Origin: a virus
Lineage: Duplodnaviria > Heunggongvirae > Uroviricota > Caudoviricetes
Length of the DNA stretch: 38,535 nucleotides
Virus record (IMG/VR): IMGVR_UViG_2874968258_000008
Strand: one strand, 5' to 3'
Below are positions 28,966 to 33,721 of the stretch, one piece after another (position 1 is the first letter of the stretch; each line of letters begins with the position of its first letter). The notes under the pieces were generated by a model, which saw only the letters and a list, made by a program, of their open reading frames with translations, was not told the origin of the DNA and did no database searches. Made by a program: the position numbers and the translations under genes.

Positions 28966-29486
28966 TGGCTGCCCCCTTTGTACTGTGTTAACTCTTCCTG
29001 CTCCTGCATCATGCGATTGACCTGAACGCGTGTGCGTCGAACGGCAAAATTAAATTGAAACATGAGCCGGAACATTTCTGATGCTTCCGTGTGAGCATCA
29101 CGGATAGGTGACAGGCGGTACAGTTCTGCCTCCGTAGCTTGTTGAATCAATGACAGATCAAATTGAAGTGCGGGTCTGGTACATTTTGCACATCTGGCAG
29201 CAAGCTCCGGTATTAGTCTCTTAACGAAGGTGTTTTGCACCGCTTTGTTGATTTGTGTCTGCATCCAAATCGCAAATTTCAGCGAACGCATAAGTTTGAT
29301 AGCCTCGGGCAGCGGCAGATAGATCATGCTGGTAGATTTGGGTGGTTGGTGAACCATCTTCACGGATACGCGATTTCGCAGCGTTCGGAAAATCGTGTTC
29401 CCAACAACAGCTTCTACGGATACAGGACAGGGAGCCAGACCAGCCCGCAGTGCTTCTTTCATTAGCATGTATTCGTATTTTTTCAT
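28962..29486 (-). CDS. Hypothetical protein (174 aa)
   Basis: First ORF of a three-gene cluster downstream of parR; lower GC than the phage core. Confidence 0.55.
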   Translation of the reverse strand: MKKYEYMLMKEALRAGLAPCPVSVEAVVGNTIFRTLRNRVSVKMVHQPPKSTSMIYLPLPEAIKLMRSLKFAIWMQTQINKAVQNTFVKRLIPELAARCAKCTRPALQFDLSLIQQATEAELYRLSPIRDAHTEASEMFRLMFQFNFAVRRTRVQVNRMMQEQEELTQYKGGSQ

Positions 29487-29546
29487 CGTGTTTTCCTCGT
29501 GCGGGGCGACAGTGCACCCCGATAAAATTAAAAGCCGTCAAATTCG

Positions 29547-29858
29547 TCATTCAGGAAATAATGCCCGGATATTCCCTGCTATCTGACTGGTTATCTGTGC
29601 GGTTGGTACTGGCTGTGGCACGGGGCGTTCTGTCCTGGTTTGTGTCACCGATAACGCCTCATCGTCAGCCCATGCAGCCAGTCGGTAAGCCTCTGCTGGA
29701 TTCATTTTCAGAAGTGCCAGCCCGGCCAGAAAAGCCACGCGTTGGCCGCTTTTGCGGGCTTCTGGTGTAAGGCTGCCCAGCCAGGCGCATGCTTCGCTTT
29801 CGTTCTTGACGGCCGCAGGCTTCAGATAGAAACTTATCCGTCTGGTTGGTGTCGTCAT
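29547..29858 (-). CDS. parR: ParR-like centromere-binding adaptor protein
   Basis: 103-aa frame from MTTPTRRISFYLKP (ORF track extends to 29993); alignable from memory to plasmid R1 ParR (IAFKLNPD.., ..AALTAGLALYRQDP.., ..NILRSLFP); starts 4 nt after the parM stop. Confidence 0.65.
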   Translation of the reverse strand: MTTPTRRISFYLKPAAVKNESEACAWLGSLTPEARKSGQRVAFLAGLALLKMNPAEAYRLAAWADDEALSVTQTRTERPVPQPVPTAQITSQIAGNIRALFPE

Positions 29859-29862
29859 TGGT

Positions 29863-30822
29863 TTACTCCTTGTCCATTGCGTACAGCCCATTAACCAGAG
29901 CAAACTGTGGCACCCCGTCCGCGATGAAAGTCGCATTAACTCCGCAGGCTTCGCGGATAGCGGGTGCCACAATCTCCGCCCCTCCACCGACAACCATCAC
30001 CCGCCCGTAACCCGAAAAACCCGCCAGCGCGCGGATCACGCGTTGTTTCAGTGTTTCTTCCTTTTCACGAATAACCGCCATCAGGCTGGCGTAATGCGCG
30101 TCATTGTGGATGTGCTGGCGCAGCCAGGCTTCATCATGGCGATGTTCGATAATGGTATTGGCGATGTGGTGACTGGTGCGCATACCGTTAGTGGCCATCA
30201 CCGACAGTACGGCATCGGCCATCAGAGAAACGCCTACGTGTGGATCGCAAAACACCTGGCTGATACCTGCCAGTTGCCCCTGAACCTTTGCCACATCCAG
30301 CGTGGTTCCGCCCAAATCCACAATCAGCAGGGATTCAAACGGACTCATGTCAGCCAGTGCCTTAAAGCCAGCCGGAATGGATTCAGGCATAACCCGCACG
30401 TTACGGATAGTGAATGCTTCGCCGTTCTGGTACTCCACCGGGCGCATAACGTTCGCTTTTTTGCGGTTGATGTTGGCCATGTCCGGCTGTGCGTTTGTGT
30501 CGAAATACTCGCTCAGTGGCAGGGTGACAACCACATCCACCTCCTGTGGCGTGATGCCTGATTTGACCAGCGCGTGATGAATGGCAATGACATTTACATC
30601 GCTGTACTGGTATTGCGTGTCGGTTGTCTGGACAAAGCGATCGCTGACCGGATCAAAACCATAGCGCACGCCATCAAGCATGTAGTTCGCGGGCTGCATG
30701 CCACCGAACGGCGCAGACCATTCCGACTTGAAGCTGTTCGGGCTGATGGCGTTGCGGCGTTCGCCGTTCTCAGTCCATGCCAGCTTGATGTTGGTGGAGC
30801 CGTCGTCGATACAAATTTTCAT
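29863..30822 (-). CDS. parM: ParM/StbA-family actin-like segregation ATPase
   Basis: 319 aa; actin-fold motifs DDGSTNIK (phosphate 1), IVDLGGTTLDVA (phosphate 2), VVGGGAE (adenosine); extended similarity to R1 ParM along the whole length. Confidence 0.8.
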   Translation of the reverse strand: MKICIDDGSTNIKLAWTENGERRNAISPNSFKSEWSAPFGGMQPANYMLDGVRYGFDPVSDRFVQTTDTQYQYSDVNVIAIHHALVKSGITPQEVDVVVTLPLSEYFDTNAQPDMANINRKKANVMRPVEYQNGEAFTIRNVRVMPESIPAGFKALADMSPFESLLIVDLGGTTLDVAKVQGQLAGISQVFCDPHVGVSLMADAVLSVMATNGMRTSHHIANTIIEHRHDEAWLRQHIHNDAHYASLMAVIREKEETLKQRVIRALAGFSGYGRVMVVGGGAEIVAPAIREACGVNATFIADGVPQFALVNGLYAMDKE

Positions 30823-30853
30823 GTCGCTTTTCCTTATGTTGATTAATTAATCG

Positions 30854-30892
30854 TTTACGGGATTCTGAAATCCCGTTTTTGCCTGTTTTGTG
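30854..30892. repeat. Hairpin-containing direct repeat, copy 1, upstream of parM
   Basis: TTTACGGGATTCTGAAATCCCGTTTTTGCCTGTTTTGTG; near-duplicate of 30927..30965, which encodes the C-terminus of A. Confidence 0.5.
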
Positions 30893-30898
30893 CGCGCT

Positions 30899-33721
30899 TC
30901 ATATATCGCTGCGCGTTTTTTGCTCATTTACGGGATTCGTGAGTCCCGTTTCTGTCTGTTTTTTGTTTCCACTGGTCAGGCCACCCCGCAGCAGGTCTGC
31001 TTTGCGGCGGGCGCGTTCAGTGGTTTCACTGATTCTCTGTGCGTGCTCTGCGTCGCGGATGGCGCGCAGCATGTCAGAAAGCACGGTAACGGGTGTTTTC
31101 ATGGTGTTCTGGTCCTGCTGAAGTGTGGATGCCAGGCGTGCGGCGGCTTCAGGGTCTGATGCCCCCAGCTGTGTCAGATAGCTGGCGACCGGGTTATGGC
31201 GGATCTCCGTGCTGCTTACGCCATGATTACGGCTCAGGCGCTGCCAGAGCTGCGTGATTCGGCTGTCCGGGCGGGTATCCGGTTTGCGTACAATTTCAAA
31301 TCCCTGCGGTGCAATGATGCTGCCGTCAACGTACAGACTGCCGCCCCGTAACAGGTGCTGCATCTGTTGTTCACCGATATGCAGGCCGAGAGATTCAGCA
31401 GACTCCCGCCATTCTTTAGCGAGTAATTCGTGGTTATCAGGCAAAGGCCGCTGCTGTTTGCGGCTCTGTGTCCAGCTCTGCATTTCATCACTGCTGTTTT
31501 TTGCCTGTTTGTCACGAAGCGAACGCATCAGCGCCCGGCGTTCGTGCCGTTTCAGTGAGCGCATCCATTCATCCACATCAACGCCGTCAGGGAGCTGCGG
31601 CCACGGTGCTGGCCGTTCTTCCGGCTGTTCTGTCCCGTTGTTGTCCGTTTCCTGTACACGGGGACAGTTATTGCCACGAGTCCAAGGGGCGGCAGGGCCG
31701 CCCTGAAGGTCAAAACCATTTTCGCGGGCGCTGTCTTCCGCTTCCGGTTTGCGTCTTACCAGCTTCCAGTTATCCGGATGCGTGCACACACGGGAGGATT
31801 CCCCGATGAGTGGTGACCAGATCCCGTAAATCTGTACGCTCTGTTCGCCGTAATCGTTCAGCTCATCGGCGAGGTCGTAGGCGGTGCGAATCAGGTAGTC
31901 TTTGCGTGGAACAAGTACGCCGCCCTGTTTCTCTATGTAGGTGGCAAAACATCCGGCATCAGCGGCGGCAAGAACCGCATCCATTGCGTCATCCTTCAGC
32001 CGTTGCGGGCCTTCCGGGTTGCGTGCCATCTGGCTGGCAAGGCGGCGCAGTTCACGCCATACCTGGCAGGAGGGGATGCCAAAGAACTGGAACTGGCGGA
32101 CCCGGTGAAGGCGCGCCCAGCCGATGGCGCGTTCCACGCTCTCGGCCATTGATTTTCCGGTTTCGTGGTCAACGCGTGGCTTGCCCGTTTTCGGGTCGAT
32201 GCCATCCACGGCGCGGCTGTCCAGGTTTTTCCCGATGTAGGTGGCGATGTAGCTGGTTGGCGTGCCTTTTGAGCCGTCTACATACTCCGCCTTAAAGCGC
32301 GGAGTTATGTCATCGCCCAGCTCGTGACGATCTTCCTGAATGGCAATATCGCGGGTGTGGGACACAATGGTGTCGATTTCTTCCGGATGAGCAAAGACCA
32401 TCATATGCCAGTGCACGGTGCCGTCATGGTGAGGCTCCGCCGTGCGGATGCCATACCAGCGCAGGCCGTCGCGGTTCAGTTTTTTGCGGACCGTCGCAAA
32501 AAACGTGTTAACCAGGTAATCGCTGGAGTCGCGCATTGTGGCCCCGTTCCATTTGGGATTCGGATGACCGTTCTCCGTTGTGGCGTGGTATTTTGACGGG
32601 CAGGTGACAGTCAGAAACACCGCTTTGTCGCCACGGGCTTCGGCCAGAAGTTCCAGCCCCTTCATGGTGGCCATCATTTCTGCCTTACGGTGAACCGGGT
32701 TACTTACTCCCGCGTAATACACCGTCTCGAGATCAATCGTGAACCCGTCTTCATTTTCCAGCATGAAACTTTTCAGGAAATCGCGTGTTTTCTCGCGCTG
32801 TGCGCGAAACTCGCTTAACGCGTCCTGGCTCAGATAGGGCGATGTTTTTCTGGAAACCAGACAGGCGGCGCGAAGTTGTTCTTCTCTCCACTCGCAACGT
32901 AACAGCCACAGTTTGCGTTTCCACCATTCCGCACAGGTCAGGCGAAGGATTGCGCCCGGCAGCAGTTCTGTGTCCGGTTCGTGCCTCCGGTCTTTGTCTG
33001 TTGTCAGTGCGTCATAATGCGGAGGCATGGCGTGTAAGTGTAACGCCATGCGGGCCAGCATCTGATACGCCTTCAGCGTTACATCCATGGTCAGCTCGCC
33101 ATCAGTCGCGCCAAAACCATCGCAGAGTTTTTCGAAGGTGCTGCTGAACATCGCCGCCGTCATGGTGGCCAGCGTCTGTATCTGGTGTTTGTTGAGTTGC
33201 GGCAGGTAAAGCAAATCGTCCAGGCGTTCACGTCCGGCAAGGGAGCGATAACCCGGTGTCAGCCAGTGTCCGTCAGTGCGATCCAGACGTTCGAATATTT
33301 TGCGCAGGGTTCCGCGTGCATAGCGTTCCGCCTGCCAGCTCTTTTTGCCTTTCCGGCGATCGGCTTCCTGTTTTTTGCGCAGGAAGGAGAGGTGGCGAAT
33401 AAGCGGATCGCGCAGATAGGACGGCAGCAGGCGCAGCGAGGCCATGGCTTCATCCACCGCGCCGTGTGCCTGTTTTCTGGCGTCTCCTGCCAGTGTGATG
33501 GTTTTGTCCTGTTTTTCCTGTGCGTCCAGGCTTTTATTAATCAGGTTGCCCAGTGGCGTGGCGGAGAACGCCGCATCAGCCATTTCCTGGCGGCGCTCGT
33601 TCTCTGCCCGGTGGGCATCCAGCCAGGAGGAAAGCGCGGATTCAGGAGCGGGGATCCCCGTTCCTTCACGCCCCACTGCGTGGCGCGGTTGTTGCCAGTC
33701 CCTGATGTACTCTGCCGTCAT
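30899..33721 (-). CDS. A: Replication initiation endonuclease gpA (rolling-circle HUH family)
   Basis: 940-aa ORF with HUH metal-binding motif GTVHWHMMVFAHP and downstream Tyr-containing region, as in P2 A. Confidence 0.85.
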   Translation of the reverse strand: MTAEYIRDWQQPRHAVGREGTGIPAPESALSSWLDAHRAENERRQEMADAAFSATPLGNLINKSLDAQEKQDKTITLAGDARKQAHGAVDEAMASLRLLPSYLRDPLIRHLSFLRKKQEADRRKGKKSWQAERYARGTLRKIFERLDRTDGHWLTPGYRSLAGRERLDDLLYLPQLNKHQIQTLATMTAAMFSSTFEKLCDGFGATDGELTMDVTLKAYQMLARMALHLHAMPPHYDALTTDKDRRHEPDTELLPGAILRLTCAEWWKRKLWLLRCEWREEQLRAACLVSRKTSPYLSQDALSEFRAQREKTRDFLKSFMLENEDGFTIDLETVYYAGVSNPVHRKAEMMATMKGLELLAEARGDKAVFLTVTCPSKYHATTENGHPNPKWNGATMRDSSDYLVNTFFATVRKKLNRDGLRWYGIRTAEPHHDGTVHWHMMVFAHPEEIDTIVSHTRDIAIQEDRHELGDDITPRFKAEYVDGSKGTPTSYIATYIGKNLDSRAVDGIDPKTGKPRVDHETGKSMAESVERAIGWARLHRVRQFQFFGIPSCQVWRELRRLASQMARNPEGPQRLKDDAMDAVLAAADAGCFATYIEKQGGVLVPRKDYLIRTAYDLADELNDYGEQSVQIYGIWSPLIGESSRVCTHPDNWKLVRRKPEAEDSARENGFDLQGGPAAPWTRGNNCPRVQETDNNGTEQPEERPAPWPQLPDGVDVDEWMRSLKRHERRALMRSLRDKQAKNSSDEMQSWTQSRKQQRPLPDNHELLAKEWRESAESLGLHIGEQQMQHLLRGGSLYVDGSIIAPQGFEIVRKPDTRPDSRITQLWQRLSRNHGVSSTEIRHNPVASYLTQLGASDPEAAARLASTLQQDQNTMKTPVTVLSDMLRAIRDAEHAQRISETTERARRKADLLRGGLTSGNKKQTETGLTNPVNEQKTRSDI
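30927..30965. repeat. Hairpin-containing direct repeat, copy 2, inside the 3' end of gene A
   Basis: TTTACGGGATTCGTGAGTCCCGTTTCTGTCTGTTTTTTG; encodes ...KKQTETGLTNPVNEQ at the A C-terminus. Confidence 0.5.

Follow-up and report, generated by a model that had tools for sequence, protein, structure and literature searches.

The DNA between the replication gene A and the partition gene parM of a P88-type prophage holds two copies of a palindromic repeat that probably act in cis as a parC-like centromere, with the adaptor ParR (StbB) of the adjoining type II partition cassette, parMR, as the candidate protein that binds them. The stretch analysed here, IMG/VR record IMGVR_UViG_2874968258_000008 (38,535 nucleotides (nt); hereafter the window), is an integrated P2-like prophage (genus Xuanwuvirus, Peduoviridae). 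The centromere reading is the best supported one because the repeats co-occur strictly with parMR, their geometry relative to parM is fixed, and they occupy the position of a type II centromere. Judged from its sequence, the element is most likely a type II partition centromere, a known kind of element, arranged here in a new way, and the E. coli prophage that carries it is very common: the A–parM junction with its repeats is present in 1,299 of 5,426 complete E. coli genomes (about a quarter). Among the papers searched, none was found that defines a cis-acting site at this junction or a role for it.

The repeat units are 42 nt each, located at 30924–30965 (unit 1) and 30851–30892 (unit 2); they are 81% identical and start 73 bp apart. 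The motif TTTACGGGATTCnnnnnTCCCGTTT occurs exactly twice in the window, against 0.01 occurrences expected from shuffled sequences. Each unit contains one imperfect palindrome of 20 bp (core GGGAYTnnnnARTCCC), which adjoins an A/T-rich arm. On the sense (minus) strand, the A-rich arm comes first and the palindrome second; on the plus strand, the palindrome is followed by a T-rich tail, and both copies show ACGGGA and TCCCGT forming a stem of 8 bp around a loop of 4 nt. Palindrome 1 (A-proximal, 30930–30949, sense strand ACGGGACTCACGAATCCCGT, core GGGACT-nnnn-AATCCC) lies within the final codons of A. Palindrome 2 (parM-proximal, 30857–30876, sense strand ACGGGATTTCAGAATCCCGT) is intergenic, and 24 nt of its unit (CAAAAAACAGGCAAAAACGGGATTT) are identical in a Hafnia relative. 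The palindrome is found nowhere else in the window. An initial annotation of this DNA had described a repeat present twice, 73 bp apart, with an ACGGGA/TCCCGT inverted repeat and a plus-strand T-rich run in each copy and with the second copy just upstream of the parM ribosome-binding site; all of these features are confirmed here.

The palindromes are separated by a 53-bp spacer (30877–30929), which holds the TGA stop codon of A (30899–30901). The sequence of this spacer is variable and exists in alternative versions, whereas its length is kept. The 73 bp between the palindromes correspond to ~7.0 helical turns, placing both dyads on the same face of the DNA. The 20-bp palindrome 2 ends 34 nt before the ATG of parM (30820–30822), its 16-bp core 36 nt before it, and 21 nt separate the palindrome from the AAGGA ribosome-binding site (30831–30835). 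A third palindrome, a perfect one of 12 bp (GATTAATTAATC, 30841–30852), is located between palindrome 2 and this ribosome-binding site, its centre 20 bp from the centre of palindrome 2, and has GATT/AATC in common with the core. Some relatives carry a symmetric variant of it (GGTTAATTAACC, changed on both sides) and others a one-sided change; in Hafnia, its symmetry is not conserved. It may be a weak third site. We also considered a longer original duplicated unit that included a vestigial parM start, and rejected it, as similarity past ~42 nt is no better than that of shuffled sequence.

The association of the repeats with parMR was assessed by a scan that took as its anchor a conserved 23-nt motif from the 3′ part of A, the loci being split by the presence of parM. 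The palindromes were found in 227 of 227 parM-positive loci sharing the A 3′ end, and in none of 14 parM-negative loci, which represent four different cargo junctions. This distribution indicates that the repeats are part of the cargo module; they almost certainly belong to parMR, not to A. In line with this, the A genes of E. coli prophages in which the cargo is swapped are homologous to the window up to ~30985, stop ~30 nt further on at a TAA codon and have no palindromes. The converse scan, of IMG/VR with the bare pattern GGGAYTnnnnARTCCC-N50-64-GGGAYTnnnnARTCCC, yielded at least 120 loci, and 119 of the 120 matches listed have the parMR arrangement described here. The sole match without parMR among those listed (L186, 3842–3925) was rejected: it comes from a high-G+C actinophage and consists of unrelated GGGGGACTnnnnAGTCCCCC sites. 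Three copies of GGGGGACTnnnnAGTCCCCC lie within ~90 bp in that phage, and are probably an operator or centromere array of its own. The palindrome pair also remains with parMR when other open reading frames (ORFs) lie upstream, namely a 155-aa ORF in loci L045 and L243 and a third context in L158. The order repeats–parM–parR is identical in more than 270 related loci.

The place of parMR is taken by various genes in relatives. In E. coli E06 (L002, 980–3291), an AAA-family ATPase and an S8/S53 peptidase are found there; in E. coli B1S11 (L003, 749–3256), three hypothetical genes on the opposite strand; and IMG/VR holds at least two further junction types. A cargo and defence hotspot between A and the portal gene is known in P2-like phages, and these alternative cargos fit it.

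We next consider conservation, for which 88 distinct versions of the region were compiled from more than 200 loci. The spacing of the palindromes is 73 bp in 83 of these, 72 bp in four and 74 bp in one, and in 100 of 100 IMG/VR loci the core of palindrome 2 lies equally far from the parM ATG. Core positions 3–8 and 13–18 (GGGATT/AATCCC) are nearly invariant; substitutions affect the outermost pair, the four bases at the centre and a small number of individual positions. Hafnia provides the most divergent relatives found, with parM and parR DNA 88% and 74% identical to the window, respectively. Their palindromes, GGGATTCATGAATCCC and GGGATTTGAAAATCCC, keep a spacing of exactly 73 bp with 21% of bases differing, and the 89-nt segment from palindrome to palindrome is equal in length although its best alignment contains one insertion and one deletion. 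The 148-nt non-coding region shares 79% identity between E. coli and Hafnia, compared with 70% at third codon positions of parM, 59% at those of parR and 58–70% in A. The contrast between 79% and 58–70% is modest evidence that this non-coding DNA may be under constraint.

The candidate reader of the palindromes, ParR, is encoded at 29547–29858 on the minus strand (103 aa; Pfam PF10784 Plasmid_stab_B, E 2e-23) and belongs to the ribbon-helix-helix adaptors. As a single sequence it has no match in the PDB; a profile built from phage and plasmid ParRs matches PDB 2JD3 (deposited as STBB PROTEIN) with an E value of 1.5e-10, a structure that we take to be ParR of plasmid pB171. Alleles of ParR (window, 29547–29858; L090 and L092, 3001–3315; P0029–P0060) diverge down to 50% identity (52% for the second allele) with a hypervariable middle, whereas the accompanying ParM is 99% identical. 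This pattern resembles the outcome of recombination, or of diversifying change, limited to the linker. All variants keep the N-terminal PTRRISFYLKPAAVK, in an identical region of ~20 residues, together with a C-terminal NIxxLFPE tail. By analogy with proteins of this fold, PTRRISFYLKPAAVK is the predicted ribbon strand that reads DNA; in R1 and pSK41, it is the C-terminal tail of ParR that makes contact with ParM (review PMC5016525). The same palindromes accompany the second allele, and a conserved ParR N terminus alongside conserved palindromes fits ParR as the protein that reads them.

The palindromes could instead be bound by another protein, a host factor or a different phage regulator, and be linked to parMR by proximity only. 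Dyad-symmetric sites of 16 to 20 bp are generic for dimeric DNA-binding proteins, and nothing that we computed identifies the binding protein. We nevertheless regard this as unlikely, given that such sites are absent from the rest of the window and that they co-occur only with parMR, across varied upstream genes and downstream cargo. ParR is the only predicted DNA-binding protein that shares this distribution.

The cassette corresponds in most respects to a type II system. Type II centromeres lie upstream of parM in R1, pSK41 and SXT/R391 (PMC5016525; PMC2241845; PMC4489591), and here too the putative cis site is directly upstream of parM in a parM–parR cassette that encodes a cognate actin-like ParM and a ribbon-helix-helix ParR. 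ParM (StbA), encoded at 29863–30822 on the minus strand, is a partition ATPase of 319 aa with Pfam domains StbA_N (E 3e-82) and ParM (E 1e-68). The tandem array of direct repeats (10–20 bp, four to ten copies) typical of type II parC sites is absent, and no 11-bp array was found at this junction. Strict membership of the R1 type therefore fails, but the functional analogy stands, as srpC of SXT also has only four repeats, some of them inverted.

Several observations weigh against a centromere. The layout is atypical, with two palindromes (four half-sites) where R1 has ten 11-bp direct iterons, and the upstream regions of the nearest plasmid ParMRs, which we checked for similar palindromes, have none. 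The search for co-variation between ParR and its presumed site (by protein search, contig look-ups, a search of metagenomes with a ParR alignment, and ParM scans of IMG/VR and of one genome per species) found none; all relatives found keep the same N-terminal strand and core, and this comparison hence has no power. Phasing of A-tracts, a sign of curvature, holds for four of five tracts and is not significant overall (p ~0.2). In E. coli itself, the palindromes are no less diverse per site than their flanks, the sequences being too similar to show such a difference. A locus with a single copy exists (L262, see below), so two copies are not strictly needed for the element to persist in a genome. 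Finally, no σ70-like promoter was found by a consensus scan of 29400–31600 on both strands, where matches judged by eye were weak (at most 8 of 12 positions). An autoregulatory operator role as in R1 is thus possible but unsupported. Of the two functions that the initial annotation had offered together, centromere or operator, the former is the one that linkage to parMR, geometry and position favour.

We infer that ParR binds the palindromes and that the resulting complex partitions DNA, which might proceed as follows. Each 20-bp palindrome consists of two inverted half-sites (AATCCC/GGGATT) with centres 10 bp apart. ParR dimers, or dimers of dimers, would occupy both palindromes, one per 10-bp half-site as in other ribbon-helix-helix centromere binders. 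Lying on the same face of the DNA, the bound palindromes would come together in a small nucleoprotein complex, possibly aided by bending of the A-rich arms. The C-terminal ParR tails (NIxxLFPE) of this complex would then capture the ends of ParM filaments, and the filaments would push extrachromosomal copies of the phage genome apart.

The best-characterized counterpart is parC of R1, in which two blocks of five 11-bp direct iterons flank the promoter within 159 bp of strongly curved DNA (Hoischen et al. 2008, PMC2241845; PMC5016525) and approximately one ParR dimer binds per iteron (PMC2241845). We retrieved parC of the related R100, in which the same repeat analysis makes the array visible, with an 11-bp period, blocks that start 94 bp apart and an A/C-rich sense strand. 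This type II ParMRC site of R1/R100 was reportedly also the subject of work by Dam and Gerdes in 1994. The plasmid and phage regions are alike in being located directly upstream of parM, with parR following parM; in spanning ~150 bp, with two separated blocks (putative protein-binding sites in the phage) and an A/C-rich sense strand; in the context of the ribosome-binding site (CATAAGGA); and in encoding homologous proteins. ParM and its R1/R100 counterpart share 47% identity over the full length, and the N-terminal domain of ParR is 32% identical to that of R100 ParR. They differ in that ten direct 11-mers flank a promoter in R1, whereas the phage has two 20-bp palindromes, that is, four inverted half-sites, 73 bp apart and no recognizable promoter between or beside them. 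The phage half-site AATCCC is similar to the A(A/C)CCC at the end of the R1 iteron; this is a lead, not a test. Residues of the ParR β-strand that would face the DNA differ between the two (RRTIAFKLNP in R1, TRRISFYLKP in the phage), and a different specificity is therefore expected.

The parC of pSK41 consists of tandem repeats in one unbroken array (Schumacher et al. 2007, as summarised in PMC5016525). The phage site, by contrast, comprises two dyad-symmetric units 53 bp apart and has no sequence relationship to it. The repeat unit of pSK41 is 20 bp long, the size of the phage palindrome, and is read by a ParR dimer-of-dimers; there are four such repeats, arranged as direct repeats.

Closest in concept is the srpMRC system of the SXT/R391-family ICEs (integrative and conjugative elements), another ParM-type cassette on an element that is normally integrated in the chromosome. 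Its srpC site has four short 13-bp repeats, direct and inverted, upstream of the parM homologue, and binding of the small adaptor protein to it was shown by electrophoretic mobility shift assay (Carraro et al. 2015, PMC4489591). It differs from the phage system in that similarity between SrpR and ParR/StbB is not detectable, the repeat sequences are unrelated and the carrier is an ICE rather than a phage. Corynebacterium prophage CGP3 likewise has, in its AlpACS system, an actin-like protein, an adaptor that binds DNA and specific cis sites; its authors link this system to transport and replication of viral DNA and not to plasmid inheritance (PMC5539076). The actin-like protein and adaptor of AlpACS are from unrelated families, and both the host and the type of phage differ.

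The nearest plasmid ParMs are at most 52.6% identical to that of the phage and have T-rich direct iterons upstream. Their distance, together with their lack of palindromes, points to a phage-specific lineage with a site type of its own. In one plasmid, p142_B (L004, 1590–1870, upstream of parM), a parC-like region contains repeat families 72–73 bp apart. At its distal edge is a direct pair, AATCCGTATTC and ATCCCGTATAT, that resembles the phage half-site AATCCCGT, a resemblance that may be coincidence.

The palindromes might alternatively act as RNA hairpins, and the substitutions seen in relatives bear on this. Among the 88 distinct sequences, no compensatory (two-sided) change is present at any base pair of either stem. 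In palindrome 1, the commonest variant is T7>C (24 of 88, and also the state in the window), which keeps a wobble pair only in plus-strand RNA and is a C·A mismatch in sense RNA. In palindrome 2, A1>G (36 of 88) and C18>T (13 of 88) keep wobble pairs only in minus-strand RNA, as G·U, and give C·A mismatches in the plus-strand stem. The one-sided changes thus favour opposite strands in the two copies, and neither strand's hairpin is consistently protected. A double-stranded site for a protein would explain these sequence data better than an RNA hairpin.

We therefore consider it very unlikely that the repeats serve as sense-strand hairpins in an A–parM transcript, whether for mRNA processing or stability or for translational control of parM. 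The region does fold more stably than shuffled sequences (z = −5.1), the frequent variants of palindrome 2 remain paired in sense RNA, and parMR is probably co-transcribed with A, as no promoter was found. However, two palindromes trivially account for the low folding energy, the commonest change in palindrome 1 disrupts the sense hairpin, Rfam has no match for the region, and the exact conservation of the 73-bp spacing has no obvious rationale in RNA. On the sense strand, moreover, the hairpins are followed by AAAUGA and AAACGA and not by a U-tract, and hence are not terminators for A or parM.

On the plus strand, both copies do fit an intrinsic terminator in a pattern scan (a GC-rich stem-loop of 8 bp with a 4-nt loop and a T-rich tail), and the T-rich tails lie within the conserved unit and are kept in Hafnia. 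The initial annotation had suggested terminators of antisense transcription; the formal pattern holds, but a role in halting antisense or late read-through into parM and A is highly improbable. All annotated genes from the portal gene, which ends ~2.8 kb away, to A are on the minus strand; there is accordingly no plus-strand gene upstream within 2.8 kb to terminate, and no plus-strand unit ends here. The plus-strand stem is not kept in relatives either, being weakened by the common variants of palindrome 2 with no compensatory change. Nor do terminators predict an exact 73-bp pair, a fixed distance to the parM ATG or presence only with parMR.

The proposal, also made in the initial annotation, that the repeats are a target-site duplication left by acquisition of the parMR cargo at the A 3′ end, or more broadly a junction duplication with no function of its own, is refuted: it predicts exactly one copy in insertion-less relatives, and the comparison of A 3′ ends lacking parMR that had been suggested there revealed no copy in 14 of 14 parM-negative loci of four junction types. 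The proposal draws on the presence of one copy in the final codons of A and on the coding capacity of the other, which in its own register specifies a similar peptide followed by a stop (KQAKTGFQNPVND). It draws also on a natural variant that lacks exactly one 73-bp unit (L262, metagenome contig ERZ894188 NODE-8, upstream of parM at ~2036), in which A ends with exactly that peptide (..KQAKTGFQNPVND, also given as ..GNKKQAKTGFQNPVND, then a stop). This single-copy locus is, however, one of ~270 and is nested among two-copy sequences, and is for this reason best read as a derived deletion by recombination between the repeats. Furthermore, both copies are also present downstream of a different gene (L045, L158) and of an A that ends ahead of the first copy (L084), A relatives with other cargo lose homology at ~30985, and the duplication is older than the divergence of the E. 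coli and Hafnia modules, in which its spacing is kept.

One of the two palindromes overlaps a coding sequence. Gene A (30899–33721, minus strand) encodes a P2-type replication endonuclease of 940 aa (Pfam Phage_GPA, E 7e-131), and repeat unit 1 encodes ..KQTETGLTNPVNE.. near its C terminus. The overlap arises because the ancestral TAA stop is a CAG codon here (30956–30958), which adds 19 codons (QTETGLTNPVNEQKTRSDI) running through palindrome 1 up to the TGA. In L084, the aligned codon is TAA and A ends just before the first palindrome; in E06, which has no parMR, it is likewise TAA and coincides with the annotated end of the A coding sequence; in the Hafnia relatives, A stops within the centre of the first palindrome. 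The module boundary is directly after the ancestral stop of A, and the coding overlap is an incidental by-product. That the final residues of A are encoded by one copy, as stated in the initial annotation, is thus correct for the window but incidental, a result of the loss of the usual stop. For annotation, it follows that the final 19 residues of this A would be a read-through of centromere DNA and not part of the replication protein.

The 155-aa ORF found between A and the repeats in L045 (3457–3924) and L243 contains CxxC..CxxC motifs (PHROG 21788, no assigned function). It reads through the first palindrome to the tail ..KQTKTGFTNPVNEQKTRSDI and a stop, the same tail as that of A in the window, and two unrelated proteins thereby share a C-terminal tail. 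Frameshifting that would join A to the register of the second copy was rejected by eye, as the A-run is out of frame for a slippery heptamer.

A centromere made of these palindromes would have several implications. It would provide a compact and easily mutated handle on why an integrating phage keeps a plasmid-type partition machine, it would extend the layouts of type II centromeres from tandem direct iterons to spaced palindromes, and it would pinpoint where an exchangeable cargo module at the P2-family hotspot has its left boundary. More tentatively, an integrating P2-like phage may carry a working minimal ParMRC, its centromere reduced to two palindromes, that segregates excised or replicating phage circles; we hold this to be conceivable but doubtful. 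Were it the case, the phage could have a facultative plasmid-like or carrier state, or both daughter cells could inherit phage DNA at establishment or induction. Alternatively, the cassette could act from the P2 cargo hotspot by centromere incompatibility against related incoming elements.

parMR is at the distal end of a block of early genes on the same strand (a cox-like gene ... A, parM, parR) and, given this position and the lack of a detectable promoter, is probably expressed with the early lytic operon, at a time when circular phage DNA would exist.

One database record concerns the state of the phage DNA. A complete E. coli assembly (L341, NZ_CP148288.1, 34,461 bp) contains a whole P88-like phage recorded as a circular, non-mobilizable 'plasmid', with integrase, cox, A, parM, parR and structural genes, joined at the attachment site between the integrase and the ogr/methyltransferase end. 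This suggests an excised circle abundant enough to assemble as a replicon, which bears on the question of why a partition system is retained by the phage; the record is compatible with an episomal state, and is no proof of one.

Across the region around the junction (29500–31500), phage P88, Citrobacter phage phiSM and further relatives share 95–99% identity with the window. ParM, ParR and their neighbours gave no match to the PADLOC defence models. Finally, a stretch of ~44 nt within A (31656–31699, minus strand; ..CCGCCCCTTGGACTCGTGGCAATAACTGTCCC..) is 81–91% identical in ~70 other P2-family phages, including Fels-2, SopEPhi, SEN8 and many Klebsiella and Yersinia phages, whereas the remainder of the surrounding 1 kb of A has no DNA-level alignment to them. 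P2-type A proteins cut at a replication origin or nick site inside their own gene, and this stretch may be that site.

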